Positions 13,785 through 53,282 of a stretch of DNA of 64,000 nucleotides are shown here, in pieces. The stretch's first letter is position 1, and every line of letters begins with the position of its first letter. Under the pieces are notes generated by a model. It worked only from the letters and a program-made list of their open reading frames with translations, was not told where the DNA came from and did not search any database. Made by a program: the position numbers and the translations under genes. Source of the DNA: Dictyostelium discoideum (lineage: Eukaryota); contig CM000152.2 of assembly GCA_000004695.1 (NCBI GenBank), positions 5,888,001 to 5,952,000 on the forward strand, written 5' to 3'.

Positions 13785-13940
13785 TGCTTTAAAATTTTCA
13801 TAAAAGACACCTTTGCAAAGTGTATCACCCAAAAATTTTTCAATGACACCTTAACAAAGTGTATCACACAAATAATTTGTGTGTACAACTTATTAAAGTA
13901 TATTTCGATTACACCTTTACAAACTGTAATACCCAAAAAA
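13785..13940 (+). repeat. Degenerate cluster of tRNA-Ser 5'-end-like fragments (gacaccttWRcaaagtgtatcac..), with no intact tRNA
   Basis: Three divergent copies of the 39-bp tRNA-5'/flank unit lie immediately next to the 3' terminal module of the minus-strand TRE at 13941+. Confidence 0.6.
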
Positions 13941-14060
13941 TTTTCTGCGACAACATTTTTTTTGAATAGAATAACGCAATTTTTAGTTACTTCTTCTTGA
14001 GATATGACTCATTTTATTAATTTTATTATTAGATATTACAGGTGCCTTTTAAGGTTGTAT

Positions 14061-14102
<42 letters not shown>

Positions 14103-14862
14103 TTGGGGGGTGTAGAGTGTGTTTAGTGACGTAATATATTTGTTGAGGGTTGATGGTAGTGCTACTGTGTGTAGTGGTGAGTTCCAGTGTTTGCTAAATC
14201 TTTCGAGTTGTAGGGAGATGATGTTTTTAAATTATTTTATTTGTTCTTTGTTGGTTGCTTTTTTTTCTTGTCTGATTAGTTTCTATATGTTGTTTTTTGT
14301 TCTTTCCCAGGCTGCTGTTTGAGTTTTCTTTAGTTGTTTTCTTAAGTTTTTGAGTGTTGTGGATTTTCTTGTTTCTTCTTCTCCAGATGTTTTCGCAAAT
14401 AATGGCTATGGCGTTGGCTGTTAATGGAATGTCTAGTCTGTTGAAGATTTCTATTCCCCAATTGATTCTGGATCCTCCAGATTTTTCTTGAATGTAGTTG
14501 ATGCACTCTTGAGTTTCTTTAATGTGTGATTTGCATTTGAAGAAGATGTGTTCTGAGGTTTCCTGTTCGTTACACCAGATGCAAGGGGCGTTGTGGATCT
14601 TTGGAAGAGCTTTAAGAGCTAATCTCCAGAGGAGGTCTCTTCCTTTCAAGTTGACTATTTTCCTGATTTCTAGAAAAGGGAGAGTTGTTTTTTTAATTTC
14701 TTTCATGATTTGGGTCTGACCCGGAGTTGGGTTGAAAGAATCGTAATTTGGATATTGGTTTTCATGAGATCATTGTATATTGTTTTGAGGTTGGGGAGAA
14801 CTTCGTAATGGGGTTTGAACCATGATTCTGCGAGAACATAGGGAAGTGTATAACCTCAATAT
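13941..14862 (-). mobile_element. 5'-truncated TRE5-like non-LTR retrotransposon (ORF2 C-terminal Cys/His domain, 3' module with internal A-run)
   Basis: The ORF 14227..14706 (KGRDLLWRLALKALPKIHNAPCIWCNEQETSEHIFFKCKSH...) is paralogous to the copies at 17421..18809 and 49429... Poly(T) on the + strand at 14061-14098 is poly(A) on the element strand. The terminal module gaatagaataacgcaatttttagttacttcttcttgagata recurs at 16460-16510. Confidence 0.7.
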
Positions 14863-14870
14863 TTTTCCAT

Positions 14871-16321: not shown

Positions 16322-16444
16322 TAAACAACGACACCTTAGCAAAGTGTATTACCAATTGGTATTCAATGACACCTTAACAAAGTGTATCACCCATTTGGTT
16401 TTGGATGACACCTTAGCAAAGTGTATTACCCATTTGGTTTTCGA
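16322..16444 (+). repeat. Tandem array of about 3.5 copies of the 39-bp tRNA-Ser-5'/flank unit, with no intact tRNA
   Basis: Copies read gacaccttagcaaagtgtattaccaattggtattcaat, gacaccttaacaaagtgtatcacccatttggttttggat, and gacaccttagcaaagtgtattacccatttggttttcgat. The array ends gacac+T9 at the 3' end of the next element. Confidence 0.7.
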
Positions 16445-16550
16445 TGACACTTTTTTTTTGATTGGAATAACGCAATTTTTAGTTGCTTCTTCTTGAGATA
16501 GATCTCATTTTATTTTTAGATAGGTTTCAGGTGCCTTTGAAGGTGGTAGA

Positions 16551-16593
<43 letters not shown>

Positions 16594-17345
16594 TTAAATT
16601 TAAATTTTGTGTTGAGGGATGTGATGTATTTGTTGAGGTTGGATGGAAGTGTTATGTGTATTGGAGAGTTCCATTGTTTACTGAATTTTTGGAGATGTTT
16701 GGAGATGATGGATTTGAATTTCTTGATCTGTTCTTCGCTTTGTGCTTTTCTTTCTTGTCTGGTTAATTTGTAAATTGTGTTTTTGGTTCTTTCCCAGCTG
16801 CTGTTAGTGTTTTTTTAGTTCGTGGATTAATAACTCCTTCTTTAAATTTTTGAGAGTGATTCCTTCATAAACTTTTTTGTTTTTTCTTTTCCAAATGTTT
16901 TCGCATATTATTGCTATGGCATTGGCAGTTAGTGTAATATCGAGTTTGTTGAACACTTCTAATCCCAGAAGTGATTTTGGAGCTTCCACTTTTATCTTGG
17001 ATGTGATCTATACCATCTTGAGAGTTGCTGAGGTGTGATTTGCATTTGAAGAATATGTGTTCAGAGGTTTCAGGCTCGAGGCACCATACTTTGAAAAGTT
17101 ACCTCCCCAGATTCGATGATAGTATAGTAATCCCTCATTGCGGAGTTTTTAGTTGCGATACTTATTGGTCCGGTTATACATTGTTTTTTTTTTAATTGAG
17201 TTTTATCCACAATTTCGCTTATTTTTTGTAGGCATTTGTGTTGCTTAATATTTGTGGTGTTGTTTGTGATTTTCATTTTATTTTCTTTCTATTTTTTTTA
17301 TTTTTCTTTAAAAAGTTAAAAATCTGGAAATTTTCTGATTAACTT
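16445..17345 (-). mobile_element. Internally deleted TRE5-like element: 5' leader and ORF1 start (MKITNNTTNIKQHKCLQ) fused to the ORF2 C-terminal domain and 3' module
   Basis: The 5' end cttgggaacccaagttaatcagaaaatttccag matches the element 5' end at 50031. The ORF1 start at 17276 matches 50105. The distal ORF (16804..16989, LTANAIAIICENIW) matches ORF2 of copy B. The internal A-run is 16556-16588 and the terminal oligo(A) is 16445-16453. Confidence 0.65.
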
Positions 17346-17353
17346 GGGTTCCC

Positions 17354-17424
<71 letters not shown>

Positions 17425-18885
17425 TTATAGAAAGTACTGAGTGAATTATTGTATTTTTTGAGATGTTTCGGAAGTTCTATTGCGTGAAGAGGTGAGTTCC
17501 ATTGTCTGCTAAATTGTAATAGCTTTAGCGAGATTAGTGAGTCTAATTTATTTTGTTCTTCTGGCCGTTGCTTTGATTTGATTCTTAATGTTTTGTTTAT
17601 AACCGCTTGTGTCCTGTCCCATGCAGCTCTTTGTGTTTTAATCAGTTCACGTATGACTTGTTGTCTGTGAATTATTATTTCTTTTTCATCGTGAATGAGT
17701 TTATTTCTTTTGTGCCAGATTCTTTCGAATATAATAGCTATTAAATTGGCTACTAGTGCGATTTGTAGATGGTTTAAAATCTTCACATTCCAGGTGTGAG
17801 TGGTGTGTCCACACTTAGTTAGGGTGTAGTTGAATATTTCTTGTGTGTTTTTGATGTGGGCTTTGCAGTTGAAGAATATATGTTCTGAAGTCTCATCTTC
17901 CCCACACTGTTGGCATGGCATGTTGTATATTTTTGGTAATGCTTTCAGTGTGTATCTCCATAATAGATCTCTACCTTTCATGTTTATTATTTTTTTGATT
18001 TCTTTAAATGGAAGGTGTTTGCTATTAATTTTGGTCATTATTTCTTTTTGGCCAGGAGTTGGTATGAATTTGTTGTGTTCTGGAGATTGAGTTGTCATCA
18101 TATCCTCGTATATTTTTTTTAATTTTGGGAGGTGTTCGTAGTGTGTTTGTTTATTTTGTGGAGTTTTTAATTGGGTCCATGCTTGCTTGCATTGCCAGTG
18201 TAGTTGTAGTTGTAGTTGATTTTGTTTTGTTGTTGTTTTGTTGTTGTTGTTGTTTCTGAGTTCCTCTTCCCACAGTTTTATATATGAACTAGGAGTGTTA
18301 CTTACTCTTTGGTGGAGGTATCTTTCGAATAACCATGCTTTCTGTGCTAGTTCTCTTGTCTTCAGGTTCCATAAGTTTAGGCCACCATTGATATAGTTGT
18401 TTTGTCTTCTTTGTAGTGAAAGAGAGTTTTTAGATTTTGTGTTGAAAACGAATTTTACGATGTTATTTTCAATACTATTGTGTTGTGATGTGGTGTTGAT
18501 GTAAGTGTGGAACGTTAACTGAGATAGTGCATATGTTTTTGCCATTATGAGTCTGCCCATATAGGTTGATGAAGTTGAGTTCCATGTTACTAGTTTAGCT
18601 CTGATGTTGTCTGAGATTGTATTGATTTTGGATTTGATACCCTTATTGTTGAAGTCAAATCCGAGGTACCGTTCGTTTGATTTTATGACGGTGTATAGCG
18701 TTCTGGTGTTCCATTTGAAAGTGATACACGAGCATTTGGTTTGGTTTATTTTTGCGCTGGTTGCTTGGCAAAACTTCTTGATCCATTCATTCATGAGGAA
18801 ATGGTCCATAAAGTTGTATGCTATTGTTGCTGTGTCATCGGCGAACTGTAATATGTCATCGATGACAGCTTAAAAAAGTGTATTA
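17346..18885 (-). mobile_element. 5'-truncated TRE5-like element: reverse transcriptase from just before the FADD motif through the ORF2 C-terminus to poly(A)
   Basis: The reading frame begins AVIDDILQFADDTATIA (RT motif C). It continues into ORF 17421..18809 (ERYLGFDF...KGRDLLWRYTLKALPKIYNMPCQQCGEDETSEH). Poly(T) on the + strand at 17355-17423 is a 69-nt poly(A) tail. The proximal end lies about 20 bp upstream of tRNA-Ser C. Confidence 0.8.
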
Positions 18886-18902
18886 TTCATTTGGTTTCCG
18901 AT

Positions 18903-18983
18903 GACACCTTAGCAAAGTGGTTAATGCGGCGCCCTGCTAAGGCGTTCTCTTCGGAGGCGCAGGTTCGAACCCTGCAGGTGTCG
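18903..18983 (+). tRNA. tRNA-Ser (anticodon GCU), copy C
   Basis: Identical to copies A and B. A degenerate fragment of the 39-bp unit precedes it. An exB-like tgttcgattct follows at about 19013. The 3' flank is similar to that of copy A. Confidence 0.9.
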
Positions 18984-19137
18984 ATCTTTTAGTAAGTTAT
19001 ATATTAGATCAGATGTTCGATTCTGCGTAAATTAAATCAGGTTACACAAAATTATTAGTTCCATAGTAATAATTTTAATTGTTCCATTATTTTCTAATAC
19101 TACTGGCAATTGGAAACTTGGTACCATTGCTTGTAGT

Positions 19138-19320
19138 AGTTTTATTGATAGGTTTTGTAGTAGTAGTAGTAGTAGTAGTAGTTTTGTTTAGGTTGTTGAT
19201 TGTTGTATTGCTTGTTGGTAATTGATGTGTGGTTGTTGTTGGTGTGGTTGTTGTTTGTGTGGTTGTTATTGGTGTGGTTGTTATTGGTGTGGTTGTTGAT
19301 GCATTAGTTGTTGGTGGAGT
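19138..19320 (+). repeat. G/T-rich minisatellite: (GTA)9, then 4-5 copies of about 24 bp ggtgtggttgttgttRgt
   Basis: Read directly from the sequence. It is encoded as poly-Val in ORF 19229..19525. Confidence 0.7.
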
Positions 19321-19525
19321 TGATGGTATTGATTTAGTCTTTAAGGATTACAATCTTCCACCAATTCCTATCAGTGTCATCCCAAGAAACTATTTCGAAA
19401 CTGTCAAAGAATGGCTCGATTCATTCAATATTAAATTTTATCAATCTGAACGTAATTACAATTGGAAGAGAATTATGGATACAATCAAAAGTGATGTAAA
19501 GAAATTCCATGACGATGGTGTTTAG
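19229..19525 (+). CDS. Possible exon of a hypothetical gene; the conserved-looking C-terminal 60 aa follow the repeat-encoded poly-Val
   Basis: The distal part of the ORF (DYNLPPIPISVIPRNYFETVKEWLDSFNIKFYQSERNYNWKRIMDTIK) is non-repetitive. No homologue recognised, and the start is uncertain. Confidence 0.2.
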   Translation: MVVVGVVVVCVVVIGVVVIGVVVDALVVGGVDGIDLVFKDYNLPPIPISVIPRNYFETVKEWLDSFNIKFYQSERNYNWKRIMDTIKSDVKKFHDDGV

Positions 19526-49247: not shown

Positions 49248-49329
49248 TGTAAGCTAAGGGATTCGAACCCTTGTATCAATGATATTGCAGCCTTAATGCA
49301 ACCCCTTAGACCAGCTCGGGCAAGCTTAC
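49248..49329 (-). tRNA. tRNA-Leu (anticodon AAG)
   Basis: Acceptor stem GTAAGCT/AGCTTAC. 3-bp D stem (CCC/GGG). Anticodon stem TTGCA/TGCAA with loop TTAAGGC. Long variable arm. T-arm AAGGG-TTCGAAT-CCCTT. Length 82 nt. Confidence 0.85.
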
Positions 49330-49384
49330 TTTTTTTGAAATTTTATTAATAATATCCTGTTAAATATAGGTTTTTTTATAATCA

Positions 49385-50030
49385 ATAGCAAACACCTTCC
49401 ATTTAAAGAAATTAAAAAAATAATATACATGAAAGGTAGAGACCTATTATGGAGATACACACTTAAAGCACTACCAAAAATATACAACATGCCATGCCAA
49501 CAGTGTCGGGAAGATGAGACTTCAGAACATATATTCTTCGACATCAAAAACACACAAGAAATCTTCAACTACACCTTAACCAAGTGTGGACACCACTCAC
49601 ACCTGGAATGTTAAGATTTTAAACCATCTACAAATTGCACTAATAGCCAATTTAATAGCTATTATATTCGAAAAAATTTGACACAAAAGAAACAAACTCA
49701 TCCACGATGAAATAGAAATAATAATTCATAGACAACAAGTCATACGTGAACTATTTAAAACACAAAGAGCTGCATGGGACAGAACACAAGCGGCTATAAA
49801 CAAAACATTAAAAATCAAATCAAAGCAACGGCAAGAAGAACAAAATAAATTAGACTCATTAATCTCGCTAAAGCTATTACAATTTAGCAGACAATGGAAC
49901 TCACCTCTTCACGCAATAGCACTTTCCAAACATCTCAAAAAATACAATAATTCACTCAGTACTCTCTATAAATAAAAAAAAATAAAAAAATAAAAAAAAA
50001 ATAAAAAAAAAAAAAAAAAAAAAAACCTGG
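49385..50030 (+). mobile_element. 5'-truncated TRE5-like element (ORF2 C-terminus and poly(A)). Its proximal end is about 55 bp upstream of, and divergent from, tRNA-Leu
   Basis: MKGRDLLWRYTLKALPKIYNMPCQQCREDETSEHIFF.., then ..NSLSTLYK, then an A-rich tail at 49976-50030. About 90% identical to copy 17421..18809 at the protein level. Its position matches the known TRE5 preference for about 48 bp upstream of tRNA genes. Confidence 0.8.
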
Positions 50031-50342
50031 AACCCAAGTTAATCAGAAAATTTCCAGATTTTTAACTTTTTAAAGTAAAATAAAAAAAATAGAAAGAAAA
50101 AAAGATGAAAATTACAAACAACACCACAAATATAAAGCAACACAAATGCCTACAAGAAATAAGTGAAATTGTGGATAAAACTCAACCAAAAAAAAACCAA
50201 TTCAAATACGTCATAAACATCAATCATGAAGCTGATGATAAAATAAAAAAAGATTTAGAAAAAAATTTGGACAAAAAAGATGTTTTAATCAAAAGTAATA
50301 ATCCAATTCAAAATTCGAAACAAAAAAAAAAAAAAAAAAAAA
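50031..50342 (+). mobile_element. Tandemly inserted TRE5-like 5' fragment: element 5' end cctggaacccaagttaatcag.., start of ORF1 (MKITNNTTNIKQHKCLQEISEIVDKTQ..) and oligo(A)
   Basis: It begins directly at the end of the preceding element's poly(A). Its 5' leader and ORF1 start are the same as in the 16445..17345 copy. A22 at 50320-50342. Confidence 0.6.
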
Positions 50343-50424
50343 AGTAAACTAACCCCTCTTTTAGAGACCCTGTAAAAAAAAAAAAAAAAAAAAACTAAAA
50401 ATAAAATGAGATCTAGCATCTCAA

Positions 50425-50612
50425 GGAGAAGCAACTTTTTTTTTTTTTTACCTAAAAGCGGTGTATTGTTATATTTTATTACATTTTTAAATTTTTAGAT
50501 TTTAAATTTTTAAATTTTTATATTAAGGAGAAGCAACTATTTTTTTTTTTTTACCTAAAAGCGGTGTAGGAGAAGCAACTTTTTTTTTTTTTTACCTGTG
50601 ATCAGACCTTCA
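50425..50612 (+). repeat. Composite block (ggagaagcaact-T13-acctaaaagcggtgtattgttatattttattacatttttaaatttttagattttaaatttttaaatttttatatt .. T14-acctgtgatcagaccttca) repeated at 52246..52432
   Basis: Two copies in the same orientation, about 187 bp each at roughly 90% identity, flank the TRE3-like element 50704..52236. Within each block, the short modules ggagaagcaact and oligo(T)-acctaaaagcggtgta recur. Confidence 0.75.
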
Positions 50613-50692
50613 AGGAATGTCCTTGTGTCTTTTCGGCGGTGTTTGTTAAACGATTTTATTTTTATTATTCAATTGTATTAAATTTTTTAAAC

Positions 50693-50703
<11 letters not shown>

Positions 50704-50740
<37 letters not shown>

Positions 50741-52236
50741 ACTACTTAAATTTGAAGAGGGTTCGGAAATGCTGGGGTTTGCCAGGCTTTGTTGAATTTG
50801 TATTTGTGAAGATCTTGATTGGTGTTTTTTAGTATTGCTTCGTCGTGTTTGATTTTCTTTAGTGTGATGAATTTTTCAGTTTCGATGAGATTTAGTAATT
50901 CTGTTTCTATGACCTTTTGCTCGAATTTTGGCTCTGGTTTGCTTTCATCAGTGTTGAACAATTTGTGACAGATTATCTTCCATAATTGGTGTGCTATTAT
51001 TCCTATGAGATTGGGGAAGATTCTCTCAGTTCTGTTGTATTTTGATATGTCTAAGGTATCCATTGACCATCTGTGGATTTTGATGAATGATAATTTGTTA
51101 ACTGTTGATATGATGGTTTTTTCAATATCTAGGATATCTTGGCATAGAGTGAAGAGGTGAGAATAAGGGTCTCTGAATAGGTGGCCACAGATCTTGCATC
51201 TGGTGTCTCTTTCGTGGTTGATACCTGGAAGTGATCTTGAGAAGAATCTGAAGAGGGTGTTTCTACCTTTTTGGTGAGAAATGCTGTTGATGTTTATGAA
51301 TACTTTGGGTATTGCTGTGTTGTATCTCACCGCCCATAACTTCTGCCATTCTGTTCTTCTTGGTGTTGGGTGTCTGTCTTTGATCATGAGTTCGTAAATT
51401 TCTTTCAGTTTTAGTGGTTCATCATTGTCGTTTCTTATACAGTCTGGAAGTTCATTTATCTTTGGATGATTTTGGTAAAATTTGACTCTGAATACACCCC
51501 AGTGTCTGCACATATCGTTGAGGGTTGAAGTGTGGGCTTTTTTCTACTTAATTGCTCCATGTACCATTCTTGTAAAGTATTGTTGTTGTTGTTGTAGTTG
51601 TTATGGAGTAGCCTGTTCATGTACCAGATTTTGAATGCTATATGTCTTAGTTCTATATCCCATAATTTTATGCCTCCTTCTTTCCAATCTGCATATGCTC
51701 TGTCTATTTTCATCATAGTTTTGTATTTTCTCTCTTCTGTATATGTATTCTTAACTGAGGAGAATAAGAACCATCTGGTCATGTTATTTATTTCCTCAAT
51801 TTGTTCTTCATTTAGATTATCCATGTATTGATGGTATGTTAATTTGGATAGAACGTATGTTTTGAGAATTGTCATCTTTGCCTTCATCGTTATTGCTTGT
51901 GATTTCCATTTTATTAGATTGTTTTTCATTTCTTGGATTAAAGTGTTGTATTTTGAATTTAAACCTGTTTTGGTGAAATTGAGGCCAAGATATCTTTCTG
52001 GGACTGTACTCTCTTGGAATGGTAGATCGTGTGGTTTATCTCCTATTGCCATCATTACTGTTTTCTCTTTGTTTAACGATGATGATGTTGCTGAGCAGTA
52101 CTTTTGGATTTTAGTATTAATTTTCATTAGTTCTTCTGTGGAGTTTGTAAAGGTTGCTATGTCGTCAGCAAATGCAGTGAGTTTTAATGATTTGGAATTT
52201 GGTAGAGTGAAGCCTTTGATTGTATTATCATTGTAG
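50704..52236 (-). mobile_element. 5'-truncated TRE3-like non-LTR retrotransposon (RT C-terminal half from the FADD motif, Cys/His-rich ORF2 end, 42-nt poly(A)), 75-270 bp downstream of tRNA-Val
   Basis: The frame begins ..LKLTAFADDIATFTNS (RT motif C), then MKINTKIQ...ERYLGLNF... (ORF 51456..52127). The second ORF 50746..51513 ends with RCKICGHLFRDPYSHLFTLCQ. Poly(T) on the + strand is at 50704-50745. This lineage differs from the TRE5-like copies and matches the downstream-of-tRNA preference of TRE3. Confidence 0.75.
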
Positions 52237-52245
52237 GAGAAGCAA

Positions 52246-52432
52246 CTAATAATTGCGTTATCTTTTTTTTTTTTTTACCTAAAAGCGGTATATTGTTATA
52301 TTTTATTACATTTTTAAATTTTTAGATTTTTAAATTTTTAAATTTTTATATTGTTATATGTTGATATTTTTGGTTATATTATTATAATTGCGTTATCCAA
52401 TTTTTTTTTTTTTACCTGTGATCAGACCTTCA
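52246..52432 (+). repeat. Second copy of the composite block (see 50425..50612)
   Basis: It abuts the truncated 5' end of the TRE3-like element and lies about 74 bp 3' of tRNA-Val. Confidence 0.75.
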
Positions 52433-52505
52433 TGCGTTATCCAATTCAAAAAAAAAAAAAAATATAGGTTTTTTAAATGTAAATTTAAATGAAAAATATT
52501 AGTTT

Positions 52506-52579
52506 GTATTCAGAGCGGGAATCGAACCCACGACCTAATCCGTGTTAAGGATTCGTGATAACCGACTACACCATCCGAA
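52506..52579 (-). tRNA. tRNA-Val (anticodon AAC)
   Basis: It is collinear with eukaryotic tRNA-Val(AAC): GTTCGGA-TGG-TGTAGTCGGTTATCACG-AATCCTTAACACGGATT-AGGTC-GTGGGTTCGATTCCCGC-TCTGAAT-A. The acceptor stem has two G.U pairs. Confidence 0.8.
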
Positions 52580-53282
52580 CTAATCGATATTTTTGAAAAA
52601 ATTTAGCTTGTACCGGTTTTTTAAAAACAAGGTTTAATAATCAAAGATCAAATAATAAACGAACTTAAAAAGAAGCAGCATGGGACAAAGCAAAATCTAA
52701 CATCAACAAACTAATTAGACAACGAACCAACATTCAATTCCGTCAACACACTTTTTAGATAAAAAAAAATAAAAAAATAAAAAAAAAAAAAATAATAATA
52801 AAATTTTAATAAAATTATCAAATGTACTTGTCCAATTCAAAAAAGCTAGATAAATCATTGGAGGAGATTTGTTTTGTGAAAAATGTAAATTGTGGGGTGA
52901 AGACTTATTAATAAAAAACATTTTCTTATAATCTTAAAGCAATTCAAAGATCTTCTCCAGCATTTTATTCTACTATATAATACTAACTGTGACCCTTGGT
53001 CAGAATTACTATAAATAAATGATAAAATTAAAAGTAAAACTAATAGGAACCATAATGGACTTAATATGGTATATATTAATACAAAACTTTTTAAAAACAA
53101 AGTAACAATAAAAATTATTTTTTTATTTTTTTTTTTTTTGTTTTTTTTTAATATTTTTTTTATTTATTTAATATCTAGTGATGGAAAAAAAAAAGACCTT
53201 TTTCATATAAAATATTTATATAATATTATAATTTTTTTTAATTTTTTTTTTTTTTTTTTATAAAAAGTCGAGTAGTAAATGT

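Follow-up and report, generated by a model that had tools for sequence, protein, structure and literature searches.

Probable repeated insertion of TRE3 elements into the 3' end of a TRE5-A element between two tRNA genes of Dictyostelium discoideum

Why should a truncated TRE3-like element be flanked on both sides, in the same orientation, by what looks like one long repeated block? This question is raised by positions 50425-52432 of a 64-kb stretch of Dictyostelium discoideum DNA (hereafter the window), for which a first-pass annotation had described a block of about 187 bp on either side of a 1.5-kb element and had offered three explanations: an unrecognised terminal module shared by TRE lineages, a hot-spot target, or ectopic recombination between two insertions. 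The analysis presented here indicates that the "187-bp block" very probably represents the remains of five separate TRE3 insertions, which are crowded into a stretch of about 30 bp downstream of a tRNA-Val gene and entered the tail of a TRE5-A element that was already there. The original observation was thus confirmed in part, and its interpretation is partly supported, in the hot-spot option only.

Repeated motifs and their genomic context

The AT content of the window is very high, and the proteins that it encodes match D. discoideum and close relatives. Searches with ARAGORN placed the interval between a tRNA-Leu(AAG) and a tRNA-Val(AAC) gene, both on the minus strand, and identified three tRNA-Ser(GCU) genes and one tRNA-Thr gene in the rest of the window. 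A database look-up gave no record for a neighbouring 617-aa protein, and a homology search of proteins gave no match for a phosphatase exon.

The repeated motifs are genuine and non-random. When at most one mismatch was allowed, GGAGAAGCAACT was found in four exact copies (starting at 50425, 50527, 50569 and 52236) with 0.02 expected; three copies of ACCTAAAAGCGGTRTA were present versus 0.01 expected, and two copies of ACCTGTGATCAGACCTTCA versus 0 expected. A T run of 13-14 nt stands ahead of each repeated motif. The motifs lie where they had first been reported, in numbers far above chance. The unit that they were thought to form did not survive direct alignment of 50425-50612 with 52236-52432, in which only three pieces were common to both sides: a 12-mer, a piece of about 92 nt (T14, ACCTAAAAGCGGTRTA and 62 nt of AT-rich sequence, with 2 differences between the sides) and a piece of 32 nt (T13 and ACCTGTGATCAGACCTTCA). 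Between these pieces lie 40-55 nt without relationship between the two blocks, and the common pieces differ from one side to the other in their left and right neighbours and in their flanking duplications. The blocks are mosaics and not copies of a single 187-bp unit.

TRE3 inserts and the TRE5-A element that contains them

Two types of TRE3 3' end were distinguished when the interval was read on the minus strand. The a-type ends in ...TGAAGGTCTGATCACAGGT(A)n and the b-type in ...TACACCGCTTTTAGGT(A)n; they are 67% identical in DNA and would correspond to two TRE3 subfamilies, recognised here by their 3' ends and by identity to other copies downstream of tRNA genes (loci L001, L002, L007 and L008). 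Five inserts, named a to e, carry these ends (Table 1). All five share the minus-strand orientation of tRNA-Val(AAC), and all display the hallmarks of non-LTR retrotransposition: tails of A13-14, variable 5' truncation and target-site duplications of 12-16 bp. These duplications and truncations are read directly from the DNA, as are the identities of the elements. The four short inserts (a, b, d and e) are non-coding. Aligned with the canonical b-type 3' UTR (locus L002), inserts b, d and e start at three different points within one 3' UTR. The extra A at 50539, next to insert d, is the same as the next host base. The first-pass reading of the modules as a 3' end, oligo(A) and target, repeated, is borne out by these inserts with their tails and duplications. 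The resemblance between the two sides of the interval comes from there being no more than two kinds of 3' end to draw on, a b-type end being followed by an a-type end on both sides; we treat this shared order as a coincidence.

Table 1. Positions in the window of the tRNA genes, of the TRE5-A host and its TRE3 inserts, and of the TRE5-C-like copies
Feature	Position	Strand	Description
TRE5-C-like copy, C-module and oligo(A)	13956-14097	-	73% identity to host C-module
TRE5-C-like element	13957-14825		target-site duplication TTCTGCGASAACA; 5' end 45 bp upstream of tRNA-Ser 14870
Second TRE5-C-like copy, C-module and oligo(A)	16451-16580 (copy 16451-17180)	-	74% identity
tRNA-Leu(AAG)	49248-49329	-	ARAGORN; target gene of host TRE5-A insertion
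Left host TRE5-A target-site duplication	49367-49378	+	TATAGGTTTTTT, 38-49 bp upstream of tRNA-Leu
Host TRE5-A-like element	49379-52462	+	5'-truncated, split by the five probable TRE3 inserts
Host ORF2 C-terminus	about 49381-49960		followed by A-rich run to 50025
Host 3' B-module	about 50026-50321		about 296 bp, ATG at 50105
Host C-module	50322-50436, 52248-52262, 52398-52400 and 52445-52447		four pieces; about 136 bp rebuilt
Insert e target-site duplication	50423-50436 and 50525-50538		AAGGAGAAGCAACT, 14 bp
Insert e	50437-50524	-	b-type TRE3 3' end, 75 nt + A13
Insert d target-site duplication			GGAGAAGCAACT(A), 13-14 bp
Insert d	50540-50568	-	b-type micro-insertion, 16 nt (TACACCGCTTTTAGGT) + A13
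Insert c target-site duplication	50565/9-50580 and 52232/6-52247		GGAGAAGCAACT, extendable to TGTAGGAGAAGCAACT
Insert c	50581-52235	-	a-type TRE3, 5'-truncated, 1.65 kb (body about 1640 nt) + A13
Insert b target-site duplication	52249-52262 and 52384-52397		ATAATTGCGTTATC
Insert b	52263-52383	-	b-type TRE3 3' end, 107 nt + A14
Insert a target-site duplication	52389-52400 and 52433-52444		TGCGTTATCCAA
Insert a	52401-52432	-	a-type micro-insertion, 19 nt (TGAAGGTCTGATCACAGGT) + A13
Host A15 tail	52448-52462
Right host TRE5-A target-site duplication	52463-52474	+	TATAGGTTTTTT, directly after A15 tail
tRNA-Val(AAC)	52506-52580	-	ARAGORN; target gene of the five probable TRE3 insertions

Insert c, the 1.5-kb element of the first description, contains a reverse transcriptase (RT) C-terminus, a Cys/His-rich stretch as putative zinc-finger region, one frameshift, an internal A36 run (50702-50737) and a 3' UTR of 121 nt. 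Its protein matches RVT_1 (E = 2.8e-07) over the RT C-terminus only, and its best homologues are Dictyostelium non-LTR RTs; protein P0003, which is 98% identical and comes from a fuller copy, has an endonuclease domain. From window position 52233 down to 50581, insert c is 97.6% collinear with longer copies at loci L007 and L008 and is therefore 5'-truncated. Its 3' UTR aligns with loci L001, L002 and L007. From this RT match and collinearity, insert c appears to be an ordinary 5'-truncated TRE3-type element, as the first-pass annotation had recognised, and its true target-site duplication has an ordinary length of 12-16 bp instead of the abnormal one that had been suspected. The T36 run at 50702-50737 was considered as the end of the element and rejected, all a-type copies having an internal A-run and the same 121-nt tail. 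The element extends 121 nt past T36 to 50581, so that its own 3' end accounts for "ACCTGTGATCAGACCTTCA + T13" on the left. The 5'-terminal "TA" of insert c could be taken for non-templated bases but is better read as belonging to a duplication of 14-16 bp that extends into insert d. In its 16-bp form, this duplication takes in the first 2-4 nt of insert d, from which it follows directly that c was inserted later than d.

Loci for comparison were fetched from the genomic regions around the RT homologues of insert c. Copies of a-type TRE3 were found downstream of tRNA-Phe (L001), tRNA-Val (L002) and tRNA-Gln (L007), and share one architecture, in which the end of ORF2 leads into an internal A-run, a tail of 121 nt with TGAAGGTCTGATCACAGGT as its last part, and a terminal oligo(A). 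They are flanked by locus-specific target-site duplications of 14-18 bp (17-18 bp with A16 at tRNA-Phe, 14 bp with A13 at tRNA-Gln), and the tail of the copy in L002 is A19. A b-type terminus lies downstream of another tRNA-Val in L002, with a 14-bp duplication and A17. By sequence, both types of end would thus be canonical TRE3 termini that occur at unrelated tRNA loci. The uniform A13-14 tails in the interval were also considered as a special property, which was rejected since other copies have A13, A16, A17-19 and A21; lengths of 13-14 are unremarkable and fall inside the 13-21 range of the other copies.

The DNA around these inserts belongs to a second element. The TRE5-A-like host starts (49379) 50 bp upstream of tRNA-Leu (49329), in opposite orientation, shares 91% identity with another copy at 17180-18030, and has the 3' architecture specific to TRE5-A, namely a B-module with an ATG, a C-module and oligo(A), in that order. 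Its modules were compared with those of other genomic copies. In the published TRE5-A, the 3' B-module measures 290 bp and contains the ORF1 start, the C-module measures 134-137 bp, and oligo(A) follows (PMC3159450); the lengths of the host modules fit these values. When the five inserts were deleted together with one duplication copy per insert, the rebuilt sequence was ...CTAAAAATAAAATGAGATCTAGCATCTCAAGGAGAAGCAACTAATAATTGCGTTATCCAATTC-A15. Over about 63 nt, this rebuilt end of the C-module has 100% identity to an uninterrupted TRE5-A-like 3' end at locus L004, and it is nearly identical to that at locus L005. The TRE3 inserts have their target in a 5'-truncated TRE5-A, at the 3' end of its C-module. 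Joining both host flanks leaves a spacer of 80 bp between tRNA-Val and tRNA-Leu.

The module of 35 bp had also been noticed at the ends of TRE5-like copies, at 13960-14010 and 16460-16510, and we located a related module there at 13970-13981 and 16466-16492. As one of three options, the 35-bp module had been proposed as an unrecognised module common to TRE lineages. Judged by its sequence, it corresponds to the last part of the C-module that has been published for TRE5-A and TRE5-C, an outcome that the first-pass annotation itself had listed as a refutation, and here it would be the DNA into which TRE3 inserted and not a part of TRE3. The C-module is common to TRE5-A and TRE5-C, in two versions that are 78% identical (PMC3159450); in TRE5-C it stands at the 3' end without a 3' B-module. 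In the TRE5-C-like copies of the window, the C-module directly follows the ORF2 A-run and has 73-74% identity to the host C-module, versus the published 78%.

Order of events and alternative origins

TRE5 elements insert about 44-54 bp upstream of tRNA genes in opposite orientation, and TRE3 elements 40-150 bp downstream in the same orientation (PMC5911963). Counted from the 3' end of tRNA-Val in the DNA before insertion, the TRE3 targets lie between +62 and +93 nt. Insertion took place at three staggered positions, +62-73, +65-78 and +79/80-91/93, and three times at the last of them. The geometry of both TRE5-A and TRE3 at this locus matches the published tRNA-targeting rules. The starting state would have been a tandem pair of tRNA-Val(AAC) and tRNA-Leu(AAG) genes about 80 bp apart, into which a TRE5-A inserted some 50 bp upstream of tRNA-Leu in opposite orientation. 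Such an insertion brings the 3' C-module to 45-110 bp downstream of tRNA-Val, the interval targeted by TRE3. Five independent TRE3 integrations by target-primed reverse transcription would have followed, from two subfamilies and all in tRNA orientation, each one 5'-truncated to a body of between 16 nt and 1.65 kb and each receiving its own A13-14 tail and 12-16-bp duplication. These events were presumably directed by the distance from a Pol III gene, and we infer that Pol III transcription factors position the integration. Each target-site duplication renews the site without changing its distance from the tRNA gene, which allows insertion to be repeated. At the site used three times, e would be the oldest insert, followed by d and then by c, the newest lying closest to the tRNA; where a and b belong in the sequence of events is likewise inferred. 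Three insertions within 1-2 nt at one site result in four GGAGAAGCAACT copies and in the reiterated modules of a 3' end, oligo(A) and GGAGAAGCAACT. Both ingredients of this scheme have precedents: the formation of tandems by successive targeting of one tRNA gene has been published for TRE3, and repeated integration at exactly the same position has been documented for TRE5-A. TRE3 came to lie inside another TRE because the two tRNA genes are only 80 bp apart. Insertion of TRE3 within a TRE5-A C-module departs from the usual picture, and three insertions within 1-2 nt are tighter than uniform use of the 40-150-bp interval predicts, which implies an additional local preference.

Orthologous loci, reached through the orthologues of a neighbouring FNIP-repeat gene, provide empty and partly filled states of the same site, and tRNA-Leu adjoins tRNA-Val in all three (L003, L004 and L006). 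The independent assembly GCA_054883475.1 (L003) has the same composite structure, with the same order, duplications and tail lengths; it differs from the window only in other homopolymer lengths and four SNPs. In a divergent D. discoideum strain (L004), a TRE5-A was inserted independently and differs in both its duplication and its 5' end. The C-module of this TRE5-A is intact and contains no TRE3, though equally distant from tRNA-Val. In D. citrinum (L006), the locus is empty, the two tRNA genes being 77 bp apart, compared with 80 bp in our reconstruction.

An artefact of assembly might be suspected in a region with many homopolymer runs and near-identical short repeats, but is hardly conceivable given that L003 presents the same structure. 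Duplication of a pre-existing composite block, either through ectopic or unequal recombination of one insertion with another or in the form of an unusually long target-site duplication caused by insertion of the 1.5-kb element, would account for the 12-mer, the b-type piece of about 92 nt and the a-type piece of 32 nt found in the same order on both sides. This origin is nonetheless highly improbable. The b-type bodies differ in length (75 versus 107 nt), as do the flanking duplications in sequence (AAGGAGAAGCAACT versus ATAATTGCGTTATC, and GGAGAAGCAACT versus TGCGTTATCCAA), the spacers are unrelated, and the a-type piece on the left simply forms the 3' terminus of the 1.65-kb element. Unequal exchange between copies of a duplication, moreover, would copy whole units and not differently truncated ones. 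Recombination is not needed, each copy having its own clean duplication and its own 5' truncation point.

Three TRE copies of the window have the 35-bp module at their ends. This could suggest that the module, or the whole block, belongs to TRE3 as a terminal module or is common to all TRE lineages, in the manner of a terminal repeat. We consider this scarcely credible: the module is absent from the independent TRE3 copies at L001, L002, L007 and L008, which are flanked by unrelated, locus-specific duplications, TRE5-A in L004 and L005 carries it in one unbroken piece at the 3' end, and the literature already names it as the C-module of TRE5-A and TRE5-C. It is also conceivable, if very unlikely, that the TRE5-A C-module attracts TRE3 without a tRNA gene, through a 3' hairpin or a host factor that binds it, for instance the C-module-binding factor. 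All five TRE3 insertions are indeed in the last 35 nt or so of the C-module, a stretch with a predicted hairpin region (PMC3159450), and three of them are 1-2 nt apart. Four other C-modules, however (13956-14097, 16451-16580, L004 and L005), have no TRE3, that of L004 being as far from its tRNA-Val and yet empty; TRE3 copies elsewhere occupy unrelated sequence at similar distances from tRNA genes, and the tRNA rule already accounts for the +62 to +93 position. Successive tRNA-directed insertion of TRE3 remains our preferred reading, and a hot-spot target was the right choice among the three explanations first offered.

Significance and relation to known systems

The biology of this locus is the already known tRNA-targeting behaviour and matters little beyond annotation. 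The locus may be viewed as a natural record, clean and decodable in full, of tRNA-targeted retrotransposition in succession, first of a TRE5-A and then of TRE3 in five events whose order can be derived; relatives preserve the empty and half-filled states. It could serve as a teaching example. It is also a possible starting point for asking how precisely TRE3 picks its nick site; to our knowledge, the precision of integration has been profiled experimentally only for TRE5-A. As a tentative and rather doubtful extension, TRE3 integration might be nucleotide-precise at each tRNA gene (within 1-2 nt), self-renewing and often aborted after 16-19 nt of the 3' end, so that both the activity and the site precision of TRE3 would be underestimated genome-wide. 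Micro-insertions of 16-19 nt mean that repeat annotation of Dictyostelium tRNA flanks can overlook real integrations, and, if TRE3 does behave in this precise and often aborted manner, standard repeat annotation would pass over such micro-insertions and their A13-14 tails on account of their small size.

The inserts resemble the TRE3-A to TRE3-D elements of D. discoideum in their position (+62 to +93), orientation, oligo(A), 5' truncation and 12-16-bp duplications, in the apparent remnant of an ORF2 with RT and zinc finger, and in the formation of tandems by successive targeting, which is published for TRE3. They differ from them in that three of the five insertions reuse one site within 1-2 nt, in that two are micro-insertions of 16 and 19 nt plus tail, and in that they lie inside a TRE5-A C-module and not beside another TRE.

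In site-specific non-LTR elements of the R1/R2 type, the duplication restores the preferred site and later copies stack head-to-tail with copies of the target between them. The same logic of site renewal may apply here, by analogy only, specificity at this locus being probably positional (relative to a Pol III gene) in contrast to the recognised DNA sequence of R1/R2-type arrays.

The C-module itself agrees with the one described for TRE5-A and TRE5-C (PMC3159450) in preceding the oligo(A) of TRE5 copies located 45-50 bp upstream of tRNA genes, and its A-like and C-like versions are about 25% different here, for a published identity of 78%. In contrast to the module as described, the one between tRNA-Leu and tRNA-Val is a passive target, present in four pieces, parts of which have been duplicated as target-site duplications.

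Independent TRE5-A insertions between the tRNA-Val and tRNA-Leu genes

Comparison of the window with the orthologous locus of a divergent D. discoideum strain (L004) showed that the tRNA-Val/tRNA-Leu spacer received separate TRE5-A insertions in the two lineages. The target-site duplications are unlike (AGGCCAGAATTTT in one lineage vs TATAGGTTTTTT in the other), and the 5' ends of the two elements also differ. In addition, the window has a TRE5-like fragment of about 170 bp, corresponding to the end of ORF2, on the upstream side of tRNA-Val; it is 47 bp away from this gene and oriented opposite to it. It ends within an A-rich run, carries neither B-module nor C-module and is missing from the orthologous site in L004.

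The orthologous locus of the independent assembly GCA_054883475.1 (L003) was compared with the window. Six SNPs were found across 18 kb, four of which are grouped in the TRE5-A B-module. This cluster could be due to gene conversion between TRE5-A copies or to a consensus error. A gene model of 1100 aa in this assembly covers the TRE3 ORF together with the neighbouring 617-aa gene and is probably an annotation fusion. P0001 and P0003 (the latter a protein from a fuller TRE3 copy) also stem from gene calling on fragments of TRE3.

Coordinates of the tRNA-associated features and retroelement copies
Feature	Window	Other locus
tRNA-Ser(GCU) gene	10456	
tRNA-Ser(GCU) gene	14870	
tRNA-Ser(GCU) gene, plus strand	18902-18984	
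Tandem 39-bp array	13791-13878	
Tandem 39-bp array	16330-16450	
Tandem 39-bp array	about 18857-18901	
TRE5-C-like copy	17180 down to 16451	
TRE5-A-like copy	18860 down to 17181	
TRE3 fragment, 285 bp	19057-19338	
tRNA-Val/tRNA-Leu spacer with TRE5-A	49330-52505	L004 5324-6610
B-module SNP cluster	50186-50303	L003 4344-4461
TRE5-like fragment	about 52627-52795	
1100-aa gene model		L003 4898-9288
Tandem TRE3 pair		L002 9957-12612

tRNA-Ser(GCU) genes and associated TRE5 copies

The three tRNA-Ser(GCU) genes have identical anticodons and are spaced by 4.0–4.4 kb. TRE5 copies lie upstream of at least two of the three, the examined genes at 14870 and 18902, a pattern that points to segmental triplication or to repeated targeting. 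In addition, a 39-bp unit forms tandem arrays upstream of the tRNA-Ser genes, and the TRE5 insertions split these arrays; the first 17 nt of the tRNA-Ser(GCU) sequence, among them the A-box-like TAGCAAAGTG, make up the start of the unit.

The TRE5-A-like copy, 91% identical to the host element, abuts the TRE5-C-like copy without any gap at 17180/17181, and this junction corresponds to an oligo(A) within the B-module of the former. Either the arrangement is a chimera or the TRE5-A is 3'-truncated; template switching, or insertion with deletion, is possibly its origin.

TRE3 copies elsewhere

In L002, downstream of another tRNA-Val(AAC), a b-type TRE3 is directly followed by an a-type TRE3. Their sites are staggered, with GTTTTGAGGTTGAT and TTGATGTTGATGATGT as duplications. 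The pair adds a second case in which TRE3 copies have formed a tandem.

In L001, the a-type TRE3 copy downstream of tRNA-Phe has a 5' region to which a further fragment in the window is 98% identical. This fragment is located downstream of the tRNA-Ser gene at 18902-18984, at a distance of 73 bp, but is oriented opposite to it and departs from the usual rule that TRE3 elements follow the orientation of the tRNA.
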